38,472 nt of DNA from Methanobacteriota archaeon (GCA_027064305.1 JAMOPY010000030.1:1-38472), one strand, 5' to 3'. Shown: positions 1,393 through 16,216, numbered from the stretch's first letter. Numbers and translations are program-made. The notes: a model not told the origin generated them from the letters alone.

Positions 1393-2199
1393 TCACCCCT
1401 CTTCGATCTCCCGGTGGAACTCGCCCTCCCCACCGTGCTCCTCCACGTACTCGATCGCCTCCCGCGCGGCCTCCCGAACCACCCGCTCCGCCGTCTTGTA
1501 GTCCGGCGCGTCCACCCGGATCCGGTACCGCGGCGCGCCGACGTACTGGACCTCCATCTTCACGTCCTCGTCCTCACCGTACCCCTCGATGCGCTGCAGC
1601 GCCTCCCGGATCACCTCCACCCCGTTCGGGGCCGGGCAGCTCAGGTCCACGTACGCCTCGATCTTCACCCGGCCCGGCTCGATGTTCTCGATCGCCAGCT
1701 CCGCCAGCTTCTCCGCCCACTCCTCCGGGATCCCCGCCTTCAGCAGCGGCTCCGCGCTCTGCTCCGAGGCCGCCCGCTCCAGCGCGTCGTACAGCGACCC
1801 GTACTCCTCGATCAGCCGGTACCCGGCCTCCTCGTACGCCTCGTCCAGGTCCTTCCCCAGCTCCTCCGCCGCCATCTCCAGCAGCTTCTCCGCCCGCTGC
1901 TCCCGCTTCCACTCCTTCAGCTTCTCCTTCCGCTGGTGGTCCGTGACCCGCCGCAGGGACAGGTTCACGTACTTCTTCTTCGGGTTGACCCGGATCACCT
2001 TCGCGACGACCTTCTGCCCCTCCTTCACGTGGTCCCGGATGTTCTTGACCCAGCCGCTCGCCACCTCCGAGATGTGGATGTAGCCCTCCACCTCCGGGTA
2101 CTCGTCCAGCGTGACGAAGGCCCCGTGATCCTCCACCCGCTCCACCGTGGCCATCACGACCTCGCCTTCCTCCGGCAGCTCCGAGAGCTTCCGGGGCAT
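1393..2199 (-). CDS. eif2a: Translation initiation factor aIF-2 alpha
   Basis: S1 domain LPEEGEVV...HISEVASGWVKNIRDHVKEGQ; C-terminal YVGAPRYRI. Confidence 0.97.
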   Translation of the reverse strand: MPRKLSELPEEGEVVMATVERVEDHGAFVTLDEYPEVEGYIHISEVASGWVKNIRDHVKEGQKVVAKVIRVNPKKKYVNLSLRRVTDHQRKEKLKEWKREQRAEKLLEMAAEELGKDLDEAYEEAGYRLIEEYGSLYDALERAASEQSAEPLLKAGIPEEWAEKLAELAIENIEPGRVKIEAYVDLSCPAPNGVEVIREALQRIEGYGEDEDVKMEVQYVGAPRYRIRVDAPDYKTAERVVREAAREAIEYVEEHGGEGEFHREIEEG

Positions 2200-2438
2200 T
2201 ACTCGAGAACCTCCTTGATCTTCGTCAGCACCCGAGCCTTACCGCCCGTCGGCTTCGCCAGCACCCGACCGCACACGTGGCACCGCACGACCGTGCTCGC
2301 GTTTCCGAAGATCACCTGCTCGTTCCCGCAGTCCACGCACTCTACCCTCAGGAACCGGCTTCGCGGCTGCGGAACCAGATCCGACTCCGTGAACCGCCTC
2401 AACAGCCGCTCCTCCTCCCGCTCGGCCACGGCTCCCAC
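2199..2438 (-). CDS. rps27e: 30S ribosomal protein S27e
   Basis: [20 protein letters not shown]...[16 protein letters not shown]. Confidence 0.96.
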
Positions 2439-3607: not shown

Positions 3608-4717
3608 GTGCCCAAGCCGGGGGTGCGCGCGTTGGGTCGCGGAGGACGCAGGAATCCGGGTCGACCGAGGCGCGGCTCGCTGGCGTTCAGCCCGCGCAAG
3701 CGCGCGTCCCGTCCGGTCCCCCGGATCCGCAGCTGGCCGGACGAGGACAAGGTGCGGGTCCAGGGGTTCGCGGGCTACAAGGCGGGCATGACGCACGTGA
3801 TCATGATCGACGACTGGCCGAACAGCCCGACGGAGGGCGAGGAGATCGCGGTCCCGGTCACCGTGCTGGACGCGCCGCCCCTGTACGTCGCGGCCGTGCG
3901 GGCGTACGCGGCGACGCCGGACGGGTACAAGTGCCTGACGGAGGCGTGGGCGGAGCTTCCGGAGGAGCTGGAGATGGACCGCGTCTTCACGGTGCCTAAG
4001 GACGGGACGGCGGGCGACCTGGACGAGATCGAGGAGCTGGTGGACGAGGGCGTCGTGGACGAGATCCGCGTGATCGTGGCGACCCAGCCCAAGAAGGCGG
4101 GCGTGCCGAAGAAGAAGCCGGACGTGATGGAGTACCGGATCGGCGGTCGGGACGTGCGGGAGCGGTTCGAGTACGCGGTGGAGATCCTGGGCGAGGAGAT
4201 TCGGGCCAGCGACGTGTTCGAGGAGGGCGAGATCGTCGACGTCTCCGGCATCACGAAGGGCAAGGGCTTCCAGGGCGTGGTCAAGCGCTGGGGCGTCACG
4301 ATCCAGGACCGGAAGGCCCAGCGGAAGCAGAAGGGCCGGCACGTGGGCTCGATCGGCCCGATCACGCCCTCGCGCGTGCGCTGGACGGTCCCGATGGCCG
4401 GTCAGATGGGGTACCACCAGCGGACCGAGCACAACAAGCGGATCCTGAAGATCGGGGAGAACGGCGAGGAGGTCACGCCGAAGGGCGGCTTCGTGAACTA
4501 CGGCGTCGTGCGCGGGGACTACATCCTGATCCACGGGACCGTGCCCGGCCCGAAGAAGCGCCTGATCCGGCTGCGGCCCGCGGTCCGACCGCCGAAGAAC
4601 GCGCCGAAGGGCGCGCCGGAGATCCTGTACATCAGCCGGACGTCGCAGCAGGGCGTCCGGCCGAAGGCCTCCGAGGAGGACATCCTCGAGCAGTTGGGCG
4701 GCACCGCCAGCGCGTAG
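3608..4717 (+). CDS. rpl3: 50S ribosomal protein L3
   Basis: RPRRGSLAFSPRKRA, GFAGYKAGMTH, TKGKGFQGVVKRWG, AGQMGYHQRTEHNK. Confidence 0.98.
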   Translation: MPKPGVRALGRGGRRNPGRPRRGSLAFSPRKRASRPVPRIRSWPDEDKVRVQGFAGYKAGMTHVIMIDDWPNSPTEGEEIAVPVTVLDAPPLYVAAVRAYAATPDGYKCLTEAWAELPEELEMDRVFTVPKDGTAGDLDEIEELVDEGVVDEIRVIVATQPKKAGVPKKKPDVMEYRIGGRDVRERFEYAVEILGEEIRASDVFEEGEIVDVSGITKGKGFQGVVKRWGVTIQDRKAQRKQKGRHVGSIGPITPSRVRWTVPMAGQMGYHQRTEHNKRILKIGENGEEVTPKGGFVNYGVVRGDYILIHGTVPGPKKRLIRLRPAVRPPKNAPKGAPEILYISRTSQQGVRPKASEEDILEQLGGTASA

Positions 4718-10018: not shown

Positions 10019-10984
10019 TTGAGCGTGACGGTGGAGCTGATCGAGGGACTGGCGGAGATCCTCCTCGGATCCTGGGTGTTCACCAACGCCGTGGAGTGGC
10101 TCGGGTACCGGTTCAAGCTACCCTCGGGCTTCCTGGGCAGCTTCGTGGCGGCCGTGGCCACCGCCCTCCCGGAGACCCTGGTCCCCATCGTCGCCCTCCT
10201 CACGGGGTGCCGGGAGGGGGTGGCGATCGGCGCCATCCTCGGCGCCCCACTCATGCTCTCCACCCTGGCCATGGGGATGGGCGGTATCACCGTCGCGCTC
10301 GCCCACGCCCTCGGGTACCGGGACTCCCCCCACGTCCGGTGCGACCAGCTCCGGCTCGACGCGCCGCACTTCCTCGCCGCCTACTCGCTCGCCCTCCTCG
10401 CCACCGTGTTCAACCACCGAACCCTGAGGTGCGCGGTCGCGATCACCCTGCTCCTCCTGTACGCCCGATACCTCCGACGGCTGATGCGGGAGGGCGCGCC
10501 GCCGGAGGCCCCGTCCATCCCGCTGCGGGTGGCGAACCCCGTCGCGGCGGCCGCCCTGGCGGCCCTCCTCATCGTCGCCTCCGTGGCCCTGATGGTCCTC
10601 GGCGCGGAGGGGTTCGCCCGGGGCGTGGAGGCGCTGTCCCTGAGCCTCGGGCTCAGCCCGCTGCTCGTCTCCTCCCTGCTCACCCCGGTGGCCACGGAGC
10701 TGCCGGAGAAGGTGAACAGCGTGATCTGGTACGCCCGGGGCCGGGACCGCCTCGCCCTGGGGAACGTGACGGGGGCCATGGTGTTTCAGGCCACGTTCCC
10801 GGTCTCCATCGGCCTGACGCTCACGGGGTGGAGCCTCTCGACCCGGGACCTGGCGTACCTGGCGGTGCCCATGATCGCCGTGCTGGCGCTCTACGTGCGG
10901 GGTCGTCGGGGCCGGCTGGACTGGCCGAGCATGGTGGCGGTGTCCTTCCTTTACCCCGTCCCCGCGCTGGTCTCGTCGGGTTGA
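10019..10984 (+). CDS. Cation/Ca2+ (CaCA family) antiporter
   Basis: Two alpha-repeats ATALPE...GAILGA and ATELPE...GNVTGA; many hydrophobic segments. Confidence 0.9.
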   Translation: MSVTVELIEGLAEILLGSWVFTNAVEWLGYRFKLPSGFLGSFVAAVATALPETLVPIVALLTGCREGVAIGAILGAPLMLSTLAMGMGGITVALAHALGYRDSPHVRCDQLRLDAPHFLAAYSLALLATVFNHRTLRCAVAITLLLLYARYLRRLMREGAPPEAPSIPLRVANPVAAAALAALLIVASVALMVLGAEGFARGVEALSLSLGLSPLLVSSLLTPVATELPEKVNSVIWYARGRDRLALGNVTGAMVFQATFPVSIGLTLTGWSLSTRDLAYLAVPMIAVLALYVRGRRGRLDWPSMVAVSFLYPVPALVSSG

Positions 10985-10996
10985 CCCCGGGCGCCT

Positions 10997-11019
10997 ATCG
11001 TTACGATTATTATAACGAT
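10997..11019. repeat. 23-bp imperfect palindrome downstream of tRNA-Ile2 (copy 1)
   Basis: ATCGTTACGATTATTATAACGAT; near-identical to 14022-14044 when read in tRNA orientation. Confidence 0.85.
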
Positions 11020-11027
11020 CCGGGCGG

Positions 11028-11102
11028 TGGGCCCGCCGGGATTTGAACCCGGGACCACGGGGTTATGAGCCCCGCGCTCTGACCGGACTGAGCTGCGGGC
11101 CC
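11028..11102 (-). tRNA. tRNA-Ile2 (CAU anticodon), genomic C8
   Basis: Cloverleaf GGGCCCG-CA-GCTC..GAGC-G-CGGGG-CT CAT AA-CCCCG-TGGTC-CCGGG TTCAAAT CCCGG-CGGGCCC-A; GGGCCCG acceptor typical of archaeal Ile2 rather than Met; CCA not fully encoded (CCG). Confidence 0.9.
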
Positions 11103-11144
11103 GGGCCCCCGGTACGCCGGCGTTATCGCCGTCAAAAGTCTTGC

Positions 11145-11213
11145 GCGGATGGGGAGTTCAGCCTTGGGCGACCCGGGGCGCCGGGGATGAGCGGAGGCGG
11201 ACTTCCCGACCGC
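11145..11213 (+). ncRNA. Box C/D 2'-O-methylation guide sRNA
   Basis: Terminal stem GCGG/CCGC; degenerate box C ATGGGGA 11149; guide GTTCAGCCTTGG; D' GCGA; stem CCCGG/CCGGG; C' ATGAGCG; guide GAGGCGGACTTC; D CCGA. Confidence 0.7.
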
Positions 11214-11271
11214 CCCACTTTCGAACGACTTATGCGGTCGCGGCCCGGGGACGGGCGGGGGTGGGTCGACG

Positions 11272-11586
11272 GTGTCGGAGCCCGTGCGGGAGCTGCTGCC
11301 CGAGCTGATGGGTCGGGTCCGCGAGGAGCTGGAGCCCGGCGAGCTGGCCCGGGCGATCCACGAGGAGCTGGAGCGGTTCGGGGAGGACTTCCGGGACCGG
11401 TACCTGGAGCGGCTCTCCGAGGCGGGGGTGGACGTGGACGAGTACCGGTTCCTGGTCGACGCCGTGTGCCGCTCGGTGGAGCGGGCGCTGAAGGACACGC
11501 GCTGGATCCTGGGCATGGTGGCCGAGCGGAGCTCCGAGCGCCTGCTGGAGCGCCTGGAGGAGCACCTGAAACTGAAGGAGGAGTAG
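11272..11586 (+). CDS. Hypothetical acidic helical protein
   Basis: 104 aa ORF, GGGGTG SD, typical codon usage; resembles the next ORF. Confidence 0.75.
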   Translation: MSEPVRELLPELMGRVREELEPGELARAIHEELERFGEDFRDRYLERLSEAGVDVDEYRFLVDAVCRSVERALKDTRWILGMVAERSSERLLERLEEHLKLKEE

Positions 11587-11598
11587 GGGCGGGATCCG

Positions 11599-11991
11599 AT
11601 GGCCGAGCGCCGGATGGTGTCGACGGACGAGGTCCGGGAGCGGCTCCTGGACCGCCTGATGAACCTGTGGTTCGAGGTGTACCTCTCGGAGCGGCTGGAG
11701 GTGGACGAGGACGCGGTGCGCGAGGCGATCGACACCGAGCTGCGGGAGCGCTTCGTGCCCGCCCTGTCCGACCGCGCCTGCGGCCTGCTGGAGGACTACC
11801 TGGAGGAGGAGATGTCGCGGGCGAGCCTCAGCCCGCCGGCGGACCCGGACGAGCTCGAGGAGACGCTGAACCTGGTGCTGGAGGTCGCCGACGAGGTGCT
11901 GCAGGAGGACCTGGAGCGGGTGGCCGAGCGGGCCGCCAGCCGGGCCTCGTCGCTGCTGCAGGACGCGATCCGGCGCGCCCTAACCCGATGA
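11599..11991 (+). CDS. Hypothetical acidic helical protein
   Basis: 130 aa ORF 12 nt after the previous stop; typical codon usage. Confidence 0.75.
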   Translation: MAERRMVSTDEVRERLLDRLMNLWFEVYLSERLEVDEDAVREAIDTELRERFVPALSDRACGLLEDYLEEEMSRASLSPPADPDELEETLNLVLEVADEVLQEDLERVAERAASRASSLLQDAIRRALTR

Positions 11992-12792
11992 GCGCCGCTC
12001 GTACCCCTCCCGCGCCCCCTCCGCCAGCCGCTCCGCGAGCTCCCTCACGCCCTCCTTCGCCTCCTCCAGGTCCTCCGACTCGTGGATGACGTCGATGAAG
12101 GCGGAGCCCACGATCGCCCCGTCCGCGCCCGCCGCCACGACCTCCCGCACGTGCCACCGCTTCGAGATCCCGAAGCCCACGGCGATGGGCACGTCCACGT
12201 AGCCCCGGACCCAGCGCACCAGCTCGAGCGTCCCCTCGGACAGGTCCTCCCGCGCCCCCGTGACCCCGTACCGGGAGATCACGTACACGAAGCCCGAGGC
12301 CCGCTCCCCGATCCTCTCGAGGCGCTCCTCGGTCGTGGAGGGGGCGACGAGGTAGATCACGTCGAGGTCCAGGTCCCGGGCCACCCGCCACACCTCGTCG
12401 GACTCCTCCACGGGCATGTCCGCGACGAGGATCCCCGATACGCCCGCCTCCGCCGCCGCCTCCAGGTACCGCCGGATCCCGTTCGCGTGCAGCGTGTTGT
12501 AGTAGCACAGGAGCACCACGGGCGCGAAGTCGGCAACCTCCTCCGCGACCTCCAGGCAGTCCCAGGGCGTGACCCCCGCCCGCAGCGCCTCGTCCACGGC
12601 CCGCTGGATCGTCGGCCCGTCCGCGATGGGCTCGGAGAAGGGCACGCCGAGCTCCAGGATGTCCACGCCGCCCCGGCACATCGCCCGGGCCAGCTCGACC
12701 GTCTCCTCCAGCCCCGGGTACCCGCAAGTTAGGTACCCGATCAACGCCCCGCGGCCCTCCCGGTGCACCCGCCGAAAGACCCGCTCGAGCAC
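11980..12792 (-). CDS. trpA: Tryptophan synthase alpha chain
   Basis: LELGVPFSEPIADGPTIQRA, YVISRYGVTG, AVGFGIS, ADGAIVGSA; GTG 12792 preferred over TTG 12819, which lies inside a C/D sRNA. Confidence 0.96.
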   Translation of the reverse strand: MLERVFRRVHREGRGALIGYLTCGYPGLEETVELARAMCRGGVDILELGVPFSEPIADGPTIQRAVDEALRAGVTPWDCLEVAEEVADFAPVVLLCYYNTLHANGIRRYLEAAAEAGVSGILVADMPVEESDEVWRVARDLDLDVIYLVAPSTTEERLERIGERASGFVYVISRYGVTGAREDLSEGTLELVRWVRGYVDVPIAVGFGISKRWHVREVVAAGADGAIVGSAFIDVIHESEDLEEAKEGVRELAERLAEGAREGYERRSSG

Positions 12793-12802
12793 GCGCTCGT
12801 CC

Positions 12803-12869
12803 CCCGGATGATGTGTCAACCGGGTCTACGAGGCGCGACCGATGAAGAGTGGGAGCGGTGGCTGACGGG
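12803..12869 (+). ncRNA. Box C/D 2'-O-methylation guide sRNA
   Basis: Stem CCCG/CGGG; box C ATGATGT 12808; guide GTCAACCGGGTCT; D' ACGA; C' ATGAAGA 12842; guide GTGGGAGCGGTGG; D CTGA 12862. Confidence 0.8.
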
Positions 12870-12870
12870 A

Positions 12871-13833
12871 TTAATCGATCGCGGCTCCCGCCAGCACCCC
12901 GACCGCGTACGCCACGGCGTTGGCCGTCCGCATCGGCTCCGCCGTCGTCGGCCCCAGGTGCACCAGCGCGTCCGCCAGCCGCTTCGCCCGCCGGCTGAGC
13001 CCCTCCCGCTCCGAGCCCACGAGCAGGCACACCCGCTCCCCCGACCGCGCCAGCCGCACCAGCCGCTCCTCCCCCTCCGACCCCGTGGGGTGCAGCCCCA
13101 CCACCACGTCGAACCCCTCCACCGCCCGCTCCAACTCGTCCACCACCCGCAGGTCCACCAGGGACGCCGCCCCCATCTTCTCCCGCGCCCGCTCCAGACT
13201 CTCCCCCCGCGGCCGCACCAGGATCAGCCCACCCAGCCCCAGCGCCGCCGTCACCCGGATCAGGTCCGCGATCTCGTACTCCAGCTCCGGCCGCTCGCAG
13301 CAGACGTACACGTGCCGGAACGCGTCCGCCGGCAACCACCGCCGGCTCGGCTCCCGCAGCGTCGCCGGGGTCACCCCGATCAGGAACCCTTCCCCCGACA
13401 CGTGCACGTCCACGTACCGGTCCGGGTTGTCCAGGTCCACCGAGGCCCCCGTCTCCTCCCGCACCGCGTCCCCCACCGCCTGCGCGAGGTCCCGGGACGT
13501 GTAGGGCAGCGTCTTGTCCAGCCGCCGCGCGTCCACGGCGAACGTCTCGTCCGGACGGATCCGACCCCGCACCGCCTCCCGCGCCCGCTCCACCACGGTC
13601 TCCAGGTCCGGGGAGGACCCCTCCGCCCGCACGAGGATCACCCGCGAGACCTCCGGGAACTCCCGGCGCAGGGCGTCCACGTCCCCCGGTCCCTCCACCA
13701 CCACCCGCAACCGCCGCACGGGCTTCAGCGGGTCCGGGCGCGCCCGCAGCCCCAGCCGCCGCTCGATCTCCCGGGCCACGCGCTCCGTGTCCTCCGGCCG
13801 AACGTCCGGGGTCAGCGTCACCAGCGCCTCCAA
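12871..13833 (-). CDS. THUMP domain - SPOUT (SpoU/TrmH-like) RNA methyltransferase fusion
   Basis: THUMP: TFAVDARRLDKTLPYTSRDLAQAVG...VDLDNPD; SPOUT: VCCERPE..EIADLIRVTAALG, CLLVGSEREGLS, PMRTANAVAYAV; TTG 13833 follows GGGGTG. Confidence 0.8.
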   Translation of the reverse strand: MEALVTLTPDVRPEDTERVAREIERRLGLRARPDPLKPVRRLRVVVEGPGDVDALRREFPEVSRVILVRAEGSSPDLETVVERAREAVRGRIRPDETFAVDARRLDKTLPYTSRDLAQAVGDAVREETGASVDLDNPDRYVDVHVSGEGFLIGVTPATLREPSRRWLPADAFRHVYVCCERPELEYEIADLIRVTAALGLGGLILVRPRGESLERAREKMGAASLVDLRVVDELERAVEGFDVVVGLHPTGSEGEERLVRLARSGERVCLLVGSEREGLSRRAKRLADALVHLGPTTAEPMRTANAVAYAVGVLAGAAID

Positions 13834-13850
13834 CGCGGCGCACCCCACGT

Positions 13851-13862
13851 AACCTTTTTTAG
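13851..13862 (+). promoter_or_regulatory. Probable TATA region of the tRNA-Met / THUMP-SPOUT divergent promoter
   Basis: AACCTTTTTTAG about 36 nt upstream of the tRNA 5' end. Confidence 0.4.
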
Positions 13863-13897
13863 CCACCCACAAAAGGCGACCGGACGGCCCGCTGGAG

Positions 13898-14015
13898 GCC
13901 GGGGCAGCTTAGCCTGGTAGAGCGCGGGGCTCATAGGGCCCGATGACCCGGGGCGAGGGGGACTCGGGCCTGGGATACCCCGAGGTCCCGGGTTCAAATC
14001 CCGGCCCCGGCACCA
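13898..14015 (+). tRNA. Elongator tRNA-Met (CAU) with 41-nt intron (13936-13976), genomic C8, CCA encoded
   Basis: Acceptor GCCGGGG/CCCCGGC-A-CCA; anticodon CAT 13932-34; canonical 37/38 bulge-helix-bulge: CTCA/TGGG helix, bulges TAG and ATA, outer helix GGCCCGA/TCGGGCC. Confidence 0.95.
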
Positions 14016-14021
14016 CCGGGA

Positions 14022-14044
14022 ACCGTTACGAAAATCGTAACGAT
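14022..14044. repeat. 23-bp palindrome downstream of tRNA-Met (copy 2)
   Basis: ACCGTTACGA-AAA-TCGTAACGAT. Confidence 0.85.
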
Positions 14045-14059: not shown

Positions 14060-15130
14060 TTGCCCCGCGCCGCCGACCTCCGACTGGTTCGCTGCCCCCC
14101 ACCCCGACACTTCCCCGAGATGGTCCGACTCTCCCGCGAGCTCTTCCGCCTCATTGTCGAGGAGCACGGGACCGAGGGCGCCCTCCGCCGCCTCGCCGAC
14201 CCCCGCTGGTTCCAATCCCTCGCCTGCCTCCTGGGCTACGAGCGGGACACCTCCGGCAGCACGACCGTCGTCACCGCCGCCCTCCGCGAGGCCCTGGACC
14301 CCGAGGAGCACGGGCTCACCCTCGTCGGCGGGAAGGGCCGGCTGGGGCTCCGAACCCCGGAGCTCATCCGCGAGCGGGCCGAGGCGCTCGACGTGGACCC
14401 CGAGCCCCTGATCGACGCCAGCCGGCTCGCGGCCAAGTCCGACACGGTCTGCCTGCAGGACGGGCACGACCTCTACCACCACACGATCGCCTTCGACGAG
14501 TCGGGCCGCTGGGTCGTGATCCAGCAGGGGATGAACCCGGAGGCGCGCACCGCCCGCCGGTACCACTGGAGCTGGCGGGAGGCGGAGCGCTTCACCGAGC
14601 GGCACCCCGTGGCCGCCAGCGCGCCCGCCGACGTGCTCTCCCTCCAGGGGGACCGACCGGCCGGGTGTCGCCGGGCGATCCTGGACCTGGTCTCCGAGGG
14701 ACCGGACCGGGTCCTGCGCGAGTGGAGGAGGGTGCGGGCCGCGATCCGCGGGCCCCTGGACCGGTTCCTCGACGCGGACCGCGGGGTGGAGGTGCCGGAG
14801 GGGATCCTGCGCCGCCTGCCGCGCCGGCTGGACCGGGGGGCGCTGGAGCGGCTGTACGAGCGGGACCCCGAGGACTTCACGGACCTCCTGCGAACGCGCG
14901 GGGTCGGACCCTCGCTCACGCGGGCCCTGGCCCTGATCGCGGAGGTGGTGCACGGGGAGGGGCCCGACTACCGGGACCCGGCGGAGTACACGCTCGCGTT
15001 CGGGTGCAAGTCCGGGGACCCGTTCCCCGTGGACCGGGAGCTCATGTCGCTGGCCGCCGAGCTCCTGGAGCGGGTGGACTCGCGCCGGCTGCGCCGGTTC
15101 CTCCGGGCGCGCGGGCCCTCCCAGTCTTAA
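14060..15130 (+). CDS. DUF763 family protein
   Basis: ADLRL, LRRLADPRWFQSL, SGSTT, SRLAAKSD..CLQDGHDLYHH, VIQQGMN..ARRYHW, GCKSGDPFPVD; TTG 14060 follows GAGGT. Confidence 0.85.
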   Translation: MPRAADLRLVRCPPPRHFPEMVRLSRELFRLIVEEHGTEGALRRLADPRWFQSLACLLGYERDTSGSTTVVTAALREALDPEEHGLTLVGGKGRLGLRTPELIRERAEALDVDPEPLIDASRLAAKSDTVCLQDGHDLYHHTIAFDESGRWVVIQQGMNPEARTARRYHWSWREAERFTERHPVAASAPADVLSLQGDRPAGCRRAILDLVSEGPDRVLREWRRVRAAIRGPLDRFLDADRGVEVPEGILRRLPRRLDRGALERLYERDPEDFTDLLRTRGVGPSLTRALALIAEVVHGEGPDYRDPAEYTLAFGCKSGDPFPVDRELMSLAAELLERVDSRRLRRFLRARGPSQS

Positions 15131-15765: not shown

Positions 15766-16216
15766 GGACGAGGAGAAGGTCCTGAAGGCGCTGGGGAACC
15801 TCTTCGACCTGGACCTGTTCGAGAAGGTGGGAGAGGAGCGGCTGGGCGACGTCAAGCGGATCGAGTTCGAGTGCCGGGGCCCGCAGGCCCGGCTCTCCCT
15901 GGGCCGGCTCTACGAGCGGCTGCGGGAGCAGGAGATCCTGGACGCGGCCCGGCGCGTGCTGCGGGAGGGCGTGACCGCGGAGGGCTCCATCCTCTTCCAC
16001 CTCAACAAGCAGGCCGCGTTCGCCAACGCGGTGAGCTTCTCGGAGGGCGGGGAGTCCCCCCTGGGCCCGATCGTCGTGGAGATCTTCCCGAAGGACCCGG
16101 ACGACGTCGACAAGGTGATCGACTGGCTGGCGCCGGAGACGATCGACGGCAAGCCGATCTACGAGGTGAGGAAGCCGCGCGTGCCCAAGCGGGAGGAGGG
16201 CGGGGAGCCGGGCTGA
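15722..16216 (+). CDS. UPF0201 / DUF54 RNA-binding protein
   Basis: VYPTEDEEKVLKALGNLF, LREQEILDAAR, LNKQAAF, ESPLGPI, WLAPET. Confidence 0.85.
   Translation: MISRVVLTTYVYPTEDEEKVLKALGNLFDLDLFEKVGEERLGDVKRIEFECRGPQARLSLGRLYERLREQEILDAARRVLREGVTAEGSILFHLNKQAAFANAVSFSEGGESPLGPIVVEIFPKDPDDVDKVIDWLAPETIDGKPIYEVRKPRVPKREEGGEPG

Follow-up and report, generated by a model that had tools for sequence, protein, structure and literature searches.

A symmetric AT-rich element behind RNA and protein genes of a Methanopyrus-like archaeal genus, possibly a bidirectional transcription terminator

A 23-bp AT-rich palindrome lies a few nucleotides behind each of two tRNA genes in a 38,472-nt stretch of DNA from a Methanobacteriota archaeon (GCA_027064305.1, JAMOPY010000030.1:1-38472; hereafter the window, meaning the whole stretch analysed), and the same dyad recurs throughout the genome to which the window belongs. 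In this lineage of hyperthermophilic methanogens, the element is very probably a general and symmetric mark of gene 3' ends, specific to the genus, and the ends that it marks are most likely those of transcripts. The favoured, still tentative, reading is that the dyad is a symmetric DNA site for a putative dimeric protein that would stop RNA polymerase from either side and so act as a leaky bidirectional roadblock terminator. Three parts of this reading are inferred: binding of the dyad by a protein, action at the level of DNA, and an origin of the RNA ends in termination as opposed to cleavage. The motif itself is already published from Methanopyrus kandleri AV19 (Tong, Schliekelman and Mrazek, 2017; BMC Genomics 18:27; PMC5217627). 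The present analysis adds that the motif is general and is symmetric without pairing, and it adds the RNA ends upstream of the motif, a copy within the mcr operon and a parallel with the absence of the factor TFS.

Distribution of the dyad

The window is the entire contig C30 of the studied genome (G000; 1.21 Mb in 50 contigs, 69.8% GC, 89% complete), which was compared with five congeners (G001-G005) and with 25 archaeal genomes from outside the genus, related at the domain level only. The consensus ATCGTTACGA-NNN-TCGTAACGAT is a dyad, ATCGTTAYGA-N3-TCRTAACGAT, with an extended form of 23-25 bp, (A)ATCGTTAYGA-N3-TCRTAACGAT(T). With up to five mismatches at its 20 specified positions, it matched 75 places in the studied genome and none in a Markov-1 simulated genome, and at exactly six mismatches the counts fell to the level of noise (15 real, 15 simulated). 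A symmetric position weight matrix (PWM) built on 64 sites with at most four mismatches gave a score of at least 14 bits to 80 sites of the studied genome and to none of the simulated one. Conservation is strongest in CGTTA (PWM positions 3-7) and TAACG (positions 17-21), with frequencies of 0.85-0.99, and G or C is conserved at about 90% at dyad positions 3, 4, 9, 15, 20 and 21. The pattern with up to two mismatches was found in all six genomes of the genus (42 sites in the studied genome and 13, 18, 58, 58 and 50 in G001-G005, respectively) and in none of the 25 other archaeal genomes sampled, while a reversed-pattern control gave no match in any genome scanned.

The association with tRNA genes is complete wherever it could be assessed. 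Rfam gave 25 tRNA hits in the studied genome, two of which run into contig ends (one of these still shows the first half of a dyad), and all 23 assessable genes have a dyad 5-10 nt past the 3' end. The same holds for a tRNA-Trp and a SeC-like tRNA called by ARAGORN only, bringing the count to 25 of 25; seven further ARAGORN calls, which have neither an encoded CCA nor Rfam support and also lack the dyad, were dropped. No tRNA gene of the studied genome has a dyad upstream. The distance from CCA to dyad is exactly 6 nt in 14 of 24 tRNA genes and never less. All 30 tRNA loci of congener G002 likewise carry the dyad; where CCA is encoded, the dyad starts 6-9 nt past it, and the five genes that encode no CCA have it 7-8 nt past the discriminator. 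Encoding of the 3' CCA is itself widespread, being seen in 25 of the 30 G002 genes and in every credible tRNA gene of the studied genome except tRNA(CAT), which ends in CCG.

Other stable RNA genes are marked in the same way. In the studied genome, the dyad stands 12 nt past the signal recognition particle (SRP) RNA, 12 nt past 5S rRNA and 78 nt past 16S rRNA, and it is also found downstream of the RNase P RNA gene. The 23S rRNA gene was not found in this 89%-complete assembly, and its 3' end was examined in G002 only, where a strong dyad (score 39.0) lies 145 nt past it (locus L046, 580001-600000; 4970-8538). A tRNA gene 195 nt upstream of that 23S gene has the weakest dyad (19.6) among the 30 G002 tRNA genes, a single case which fits a terminator weakened where read-through is needed. 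As a side observation, the 16S gene of the studied genome is solitary (C40:11209-12985, L008), and its dyad at +78 is followed by C/D'/C'/D box-like strings and then by a second dyad.

Protein genes were called with our own crude codon-bias caller (1304 coding sequences, CDS, covering 93% of the genome), whose stops are reliable and whose starts are unreliable. A dyad follows 46 CDS stops of the studied genome at 12-45 nt. Non-negative distances have a sharp lower limit of 12 nt, the value observed in seven cases; four negative distances probably reflect miscalled genes. The distribution over intergenic regions of at least 30 nt follows the orientation of the flanking genes, with sites in 20 of 53 convergent, 39 of 265 tandem and 2 of 139 divergent regions (Fisher p = 5e-11 for convergent versus divergent and 6e-6 for tandem versus divergent). 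Convergent gene pairs have one dyad common to both ends, as seen with the first window copy described below. Of 81 sites with a score of at least 12, 60 lie downstream of a called 3' end at a distance of up to 45 nt, and the other 21 include low-scoring intragenic sites, sites behind RNA genes and contig-edge cases. In a 131-kb sample of G002, biased to tRNA loci, 35 of 37 sites fall at the end of a tRNA gene or a long open reading frame (ORF), compared with 119 of 428 random positions.

The genome scan and the inspection of tRNA and rRNA downstream regions that an earlier note on this DNA had proposed thus give about 80 copies at gene ends, present in all genomes of the genus and standing behind all assessable tRNAs, 5S and 16S, which is more than a mere local duplication. 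The note's description of the element as tRNA-specific does not hold, given the copies behind 46 CDS stops and behind the 5S, 16S, SRP and RNase P RNA genes.

The spacer between stop and dyad is rich in C (56% C, 26% G, 10% T). Runs of five or more T (T5+) occur in none of 42 dyad-bearing downstream regions, against 27 of 314 dyad-free ones (p = 0.057), which is only suggestive of mutual exclusion between T5+ tracts and dyads. A Pfam scan of 20 of the 46 dyad-bearing CDS identified PdxS, an ABC ATPase, DHQS-II, L32e, ArgRS, TruD, McrB, a PurM-like protein and a radical SAM protein, with five CDS giving no hit; this is a mixed set, and the idea that only highly expressed genes carry the dyad is unsupported. 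Two features of the surrounding sequence were also seen: a cACGCCCCC-like string recurs in the stop-to-dyad spacers (e.g., C4:8432-8454 and C25:6134-6161), and the 20 nt past the dyad are G-rich (45% G) in the 3' untranslated regions (UTRs) of CDS.

Symmetry without pairing and the position of RNA 3' ends

A palindrome may be read as a hairpin in RNA or as two half-sites in DNA, and the two arms were compared at 41 sites that face a single upstream gene and could be oriented by that gene. The arms are equally conserved (16.1 versus 15.6 bits). Combinations able to pair are as frequent as expected if the arms varied independently, with 30 observed versus 31.4 expected at positions 1/23, 29 versus 28 at 2/22, 29 versus 29 at 7/17, 29 versus 29.3 at 8/16 and 24 versus 25 at 10/14, so that no variable pair shows covariation between the arms. 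On the sense strand, C.A mismatches and G.U pairs number 7 and 9 at 8/16 and 5 and 5 at 10/14. Folded as RNA with nearest-neighbour parameters, the 23-mers of 71 sites are predicted to remain open chains in 63 cases at 85 °C and in all 71 at 98 °C, although intracellular salt is very high in these organisms and the prediction uses standard parameters without such salt. Since the arms are equally conserved, do not covary and form a hairpin that is predicted to be unfolded, the dyad is more readily understood as a DNA site. An AT-rich palindrome kept in sequence but not in pairing, in a hyperthermophile of 70% GC, looks like two half-sites that would be read on double-stranded DNA by a symmetric protein.

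The position of RNA 3' ends relative to the dyad was examined in congener G002. Four size-fractionated RNA runs from 2013 (X1-X4), from one study and at most two samples, were available as assembled contigs and were aligned to a 20-kb locus (L047) containing seven dyads; the ends described are those among the matches listed. At mature tRNA CCA ends, the contigs carry homopolymer A or T loose ends (e.g., at 15812 and 19222), which we infer to be tails added to RNA 3' ends in library construction. Four RNA 3' ends were found next to dyads in this locus:

RNase P RNA (Rfam 4217-4574): end at 4590, with an A-run in all four runs; dyad at 4597-4619
Pre-tRNA with a 2-nt trailer: end at 1150, with a T-run in X4; proximal edge of the dyad at 1143
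mRNA of ORF 79-1083: end at 1114, 31 nt past the stop, an X2 contig end with 24 unaligned letters; dyad from 1121
mRNA of ORF 1451-2404 (minus strand): end at 1435, 15 nt past the stop, where contigs of three runs end with about 22 unaligned letters; dyad edge at 1427

Each of these ends, among the matches listed, precedes the proximal edge of its dyad by 6-7 nt, and none adjoins a genomic A-run suggestive of internal priming. The unaligned letters at the two mRNA ends are probably tails as well. A gap of 6 nt is also the minimum CCA-to-dyad spacing in both the studied genome and G002. An RNA end 6-7 nt before the dyad would leave a tRNA transcript with a trailer of just 0-4 nt, and the 12-nt minimum between stop and dyad would leave an mRNA with at least about 6 nt of 3' UTR. 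One further dyad of the locus (L047:17684) has no RNA cover among the matches listed; uncovered stretches beside dyads, and the lack of a contig spanning one among those matches, carry no weight as evidence.

The window copies and their neighbours

Copy 1 reads ATCGTTACGATTATTATAACGAT on the plus strand and ATCGTTATAATAATCGTAACGAT in the orientation of its tRNA gene, and copy 2 reads ACCGTTACGAAAATCGTAACGAT. In tRNA orientation, the two are identical at 19 of 23 positions, with mismatches at positions 2, 8, 9 and 11, and each is a 10-3-10 dyad. They are separated from the tRNA discriminator by ccgcccgg (8 nt, tRNA(CAT)) and ccaccggga (9 nt, tRNA-Met). These particulars agree throughout with the earlier note, as does its remark that the window holds no other full copy: its pattern with up to three mismatches finds two loci only, where 0.01 would be expected (100 shuffles), and the PWM scan also finds two sites only. 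The copies and their immediate neighbours in the window are as follows:

10025..10984, plus strand: CDS of the Na/Ca exchanger family (PF01699), its stop 12 nt from copy 1, the genome-wide minimum stop-to-dyad spacing
10997..11019, no strand assigned: dyad copy 1, PWM score 41.5, common to two convergent 3' ends
11026..11102, minus strand: tRNA with anticodon CAT, its 3' end being discriminator-CCG and not CCA (11026-11030)
13898..14015, plus strand: tRNA-Met (CAT) with a 41-nt intron and an encoded CCA
14022..14044, no strand assigned: dyad copy 2, PWM score 40.2, 6 nt past the encoded CCA of tRNA-Met (plus strand) and 75 nt before the next CDS start
14120..15130, plus strand: CDS of the DUF763 family, downstream of copy 2 and codirectional with tRNA-Met

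Copy 1 also lies 6 nt past the 3' end of tRNA(CAT), whose canonical A/T-rich promoter-like box is situated upstream of the gene, separate from the dyad. Between the copies are trpA, a THUMP-SPOUT methylase gene and two ORFs without a Pfam match, which are the genes that the earlier note had placed there; the C/D small RNAs (sRNAs) that it also listed in this block were not confirmed by Rfam. The two ORFs without a Pfam match are small neighbours (104 and 130 aa; 11272-11991) located between tRNA(CAT) and trpA.

The proposed roadblock, its rivals and known systems

In the favoured reading, a putative homodimeric (or otherwise two-fold symmetric) sequence-specific DNA-binding protein would occupy the dyad and halt RNA polymerase whichever side it came from, leaving the RNA 3' end 6-7 nt short of the proximal edge, and the transcript would be released after the halt. 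Because polymerase would be halted from either side, one site could serve both genes of a convergent pair. Behind tRNA genes, the placement of the site would end the transcript at the CCA end or 0-4 nt past it. The block would have to be leaky, with copies in operons and directly before ribosome-binding sites being read through, which agrees with the behaviour of known roadblocks. This reading is favoured on the symmetric arms without covariation, the unstable hairpin, the link to 3' ends with sharing between convergent genes, and the upstream RNA ends. Among the three options of the earlier note, namely a dimeric-protein terminator or roadblock, a trailer-processing hairpin and a recombination site, it is the first that fits best, once its restriction to tRNA genes is given up.

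The genus may also differ from other archaea in a factor that bears on roadblocks. None of the six genomes of the genus, two of which are single-contig assemblies of 99% completeness, gave a match to the TFS zinc ribbon (PF01096), while 12 of 15 other archaea sampled and all four archaeal controls did. This agrees with a description of M. kandleri as the sole archaeon without TFS (PMC7289017), and read-through of roadblocks is reported to increase when polymerases or ribosomes trail behind and when transcript-cleavage factors act (PMC10310618). Since cleavage factors aid polymerase past roadblocks, the loss of TFS could be linked to the dyad, as a correlation in one lineage and one event. A bolder and rather doubtful proposal is that one DNA-binding dimer is the genus's main terminator, which would act on all stable RNAs and a sizeable share of mRNAs in either direction, leave almost no tRNA 3' trailer, and be tied to the unique loss of TFS, because polymerases unable to rescue backtracked complexes would yield more readily to roadblocks.

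Several observations weigh against a roadblock. A strong dyad (score 37) sits within the mcrBDCGA operon, 28 nt past the stop of mcrB and 12 nt ahead of the start of mcrD, with a Shine-Dalgarno (SD)-like G-run directly after it, and this copy is kept in all five congeners (scores 30-41) while its flanks have diverged, the start codon and the G-run being likewise conserved. At 11 tandem sites, several of them behind tRNA genes, the next start codon is at most 20 nt away and leaves no space for a promoter; an ORF beginning MEVHKFGGTS, for example, lies 15 nt behind a tRNA-Ser and its dyad. A C/D-like sRNA begins 7 nt past the dyad behind tRNA-Asn. With dyads inside an operon, before close starts and before an sRNA, polymerases must often pass some copies, yet the dyads that need to be read through score just slightly lower than others: the median is 33 at tandem sites with a close start, 36 at other tandem sites and 40 at convergent sites, with overlapping ranges, so that the idea of weaker operon-internal dyads amounts to a slight trend only. 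The gap of 6-7 nt is below the 10-15 nt between RNA end and site in known roadblocks. The RNA ends themselves come from one study's assembled contigs in a congener, with tails inferred at two of the four, and two contigs, of X2 and X4 (one sample), begin at L047:15831, in the middle of a dyad (15819-15841) that follows a tRNA gene. No binding protein was identified in a search that covered Myb (PF00249) and mTERF (PF02536) homologues in G000, G001 and G002, with no match, and that was not a systematic candidate search. Also present are beta-CASP proteins of 660-700 aa (weak matches). As a further observation on the mcr locus (C25:4799-11066, L088), mcrBDCGA is followed by mtrE, and the gap between mcrA and mtrE holds an A/T box, TTTTTAAA, together with a weak dyad (score 15).

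The main rival places the signal in RNA and is an unlikely but substantial alternative: the dyad would be transcribed, and a protein-bound RNA hairpin would direct endonucleolytic 3'-end maturation or serve as an intercistronic processing or stability element. Such a signal would explain the mcrB|mcrD copy, the copies before SD sequences and the sRNA starting 7 nt past a copy, and the contigs starting at a dyad centre could mean cleavage in the loop. It retains the trailer hairpin of the earlier note and widens to other RNAs the speculation of Tong et al. that an enzyme of tRNA 3' maturation recognises the motif as its target signal (PMC5217627). In the parts covered of a study of M. kandleri RNAs, pre-tRNAs with 5' leaders and with introns are described, but there is no 3'-trailer class, 3' processing is placed first, and the dyad motif receives no mention (Su, Tripp and Randau, 2013; PMC3695527). 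Against an RNA signal stand the lack of compensatory changes, the sense strand that does not prefer G.U over C.A, the hairpin predicted to be open at 85-98 °C, and arms equally conserved where transcription approaches from one direction only. RNA ends upstream of the hairpin would, moreover, leave it missing from the stable product. A special tRNA 3' pathway would also be unnecessary given an RNase Z-like gene, which was matched over its full length at 173-187 bits, below the curated cut-off, in all five genomes searched. The same match leaves unsupported the notion of a genus without RNase Z in which termination replaces trailer removal.

Bacterial repetitive extragenic palindromic (REP) elements with their RAYT transposases are short extragenic palindromes, present in many copies at gene 3' ends and also in operons, and the dyads resemble them in all these respects, including the convergent gaps. 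A REP-like element, or one bound by a nucleoid, chromatin or topology protein in 3' intergenic DNA, that affected mRNA stability or topology would also suit a break in synteny at a tRNA/dyad boundary in congener G004. This is nevertheless improbable: the spacing behind tRNA genes is fixed (5-10 nt in 25 of 25 and, in G002, 6-9 nt after CCA or 7-8 nt after the discriminator in 30 of 30), stops are never closer than 12 nt, the four RNA ends keep a constant 6-7 nt from the dyad, and the mcrB|mcrD copy is retained at an orthologous position between diverging flanks. The hairpin is unstable, and a Y1/RAYT transposase (PF01797) had no match in the five genomes searched, with a control that did match in six reference genomes; a REP/RAYT system was rejected on this absence. 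A promoter role, in which the AT-rich centre would bind TBP/TFB and drive the downstream gene, possibly both ways, is very improbable. Six tandem genes start 12-16 nt past a dyad, whose centre is then about 24-28 nt before the start codon, near the TATA-to-start distance, and the sRNA starting 7 nt past a copy points the same way. Divergent regions, however, have few dyads compared with convergent ones, and tRNA genes, which never have a dyad upstream, carry separate A/T-only boxes unlike the dyad (TTTTTATA, TTTAAA and TTATTAA, about 30-40 nt upstream, often after an A-run). The conserved G or C at positions 3, 4, 9, 15, 20 and 21 interrupts any A/T box of 8 bp, and the SD-like leaders of downstream genes begin directly after the dyad. 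The M. kandleri box A is given as TTTAAA by Su et al. (2013; PMC3695527). A general promoter motif was therefore rejected on the intergenic classes and the distinct tRNA promoter boxes. A recombination or inversion site, or a local duplication, around the 3-kb block between the window copies is scarcely credible. The two copies are indeed inverted around the block, and in G004 (C16 1784-5012, L099) a rearrangement with its breakpoint at the tRNA/dyad boundary has put the DUF763 gene, an ortholog of CDS 14120-15130, behind tRNA(CAT) and its dyad instead of tRNA-Met and its dyad. Because every tRNA gene has a copy, outward-pointing tRNA genes bracket whatever lies between them by necessity, and the significance that the earlier note saw in this arrangement is unsupported. 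About 80 copies lie at gene ends genome-wide, in G001, G002, G003 and G005 the 5.3 kb surrounding the block run collinear with the window, and a self-symmetric dyad makes orientation meaningless. G004 is not a simple inversion, as its trpA is on a different contig. On the genome-wide distribution and the comparison of block orientation between congeners, the recombination idea was rejected.

Should the bolder proposal of one main terminator dimer hold, the dyad and its protein would be the first terminator system in Archaea built on a dedicated sequence-specific protein. Archaeal termination is mainly known from oligo-T tracts and general factors. To our knowledge, no sequence-specific protein-mediated terminator is established in Archaea, and a literature search on archaeal sequence-specific roadblock terminators turned up none among the matches listed. 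The element offers a compact, testable case, a 23-bp dyad found genus-wide at the ends of tRNA, rRNA, RNase P and SRP RNA genes and of many protein genes, with RNA ends a fixed distance upstream. It also provides a hypothesis for two oddities of Methanopyrus, the CCA-encoding tRNA genes and the absence of TFS, and makes a published orphan motif assayable.

That motif was overlooked in the earlier note, which did not recognise a described element. Tong et al. (2017; PMC5217627) describe CGTTA(N)9TAACG downstream of about half of the tRNA genes of M. kandleri AV19, at a distance of about 10 bp, and regard it as specific to M. kandleri. The core, CGTTA-N9-TAACG, which both window copies also contain, the position about 10 bp past tRNA genes and the lineage restriction are the same here. 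From the identical core, the same position and the restriction to a lineage, the studied genome probably belongs to the Methanopyrus lineage. The differences are that the published motif, in the parts covered, was reported as tRNA-related and at about half of the tRNA genes, whereas the dyad follows all 25 assessable tRNA genes in the studied genome and all 30 in G002, and stands also behind rRNA, SRP and RNase P RNA genes and 46 CDS, with sharing between convergent genes and with RNA ends upstream (PMC5217627).

Compared with known ways of ending transcripts, the dyad shares with bacterial bidirectional terminators of the hairpin and U-tract type a palindrome between convergent genes or past stable RNA genes that is common to both strands. 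It differs from them in an AT-rich stem predicted to be unfolded at growth temperature, in arms that do not covary, in having no U-tract (none of 42 with T5+) and in RNA ends that lie upstream and not downstream of the palindrome. In Archaea, oligo-T intrinsic termination and FttA/aCPSF1-assisted termination form transcript 3' ends; both oligo-T tracts and dyads stand at such ends, and the studied genome has T5+ behind some of its genes (27 of 314 dyad-free regions), whereas dyad-marked ends have none and their spacer is 56% C and 10% T. The REP/RAYT likeness has the differences given above, namely no Y1 transposase, an unstable hairpin, fixed spacing from CCA or stop and a conserved orthologous mcrB|mcrD copy. 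A further likeness is to the roadblock terminators formed by bound proteins in eukaryotes and mitochondria (Reb1/Nsi1, TTF-I at the Sal box and mTERF1); mTERF1 is bidirectional and acts at an rRNA/tRNA boundary. As in those systems, a sequence-specific site that would be read on double-stranded DNA lies just past the transcription unit, and RNA ends lie a short fixed distance upstream (here four ends from one study). The dyad differs from them in the lack of a Myb or mTERF homologue among the genomes searched, in being a perfect dyad that would serve both directions, and in being used alike for tRNA, rRNA and mRNA in an archaeon with a single RNA polymerase.

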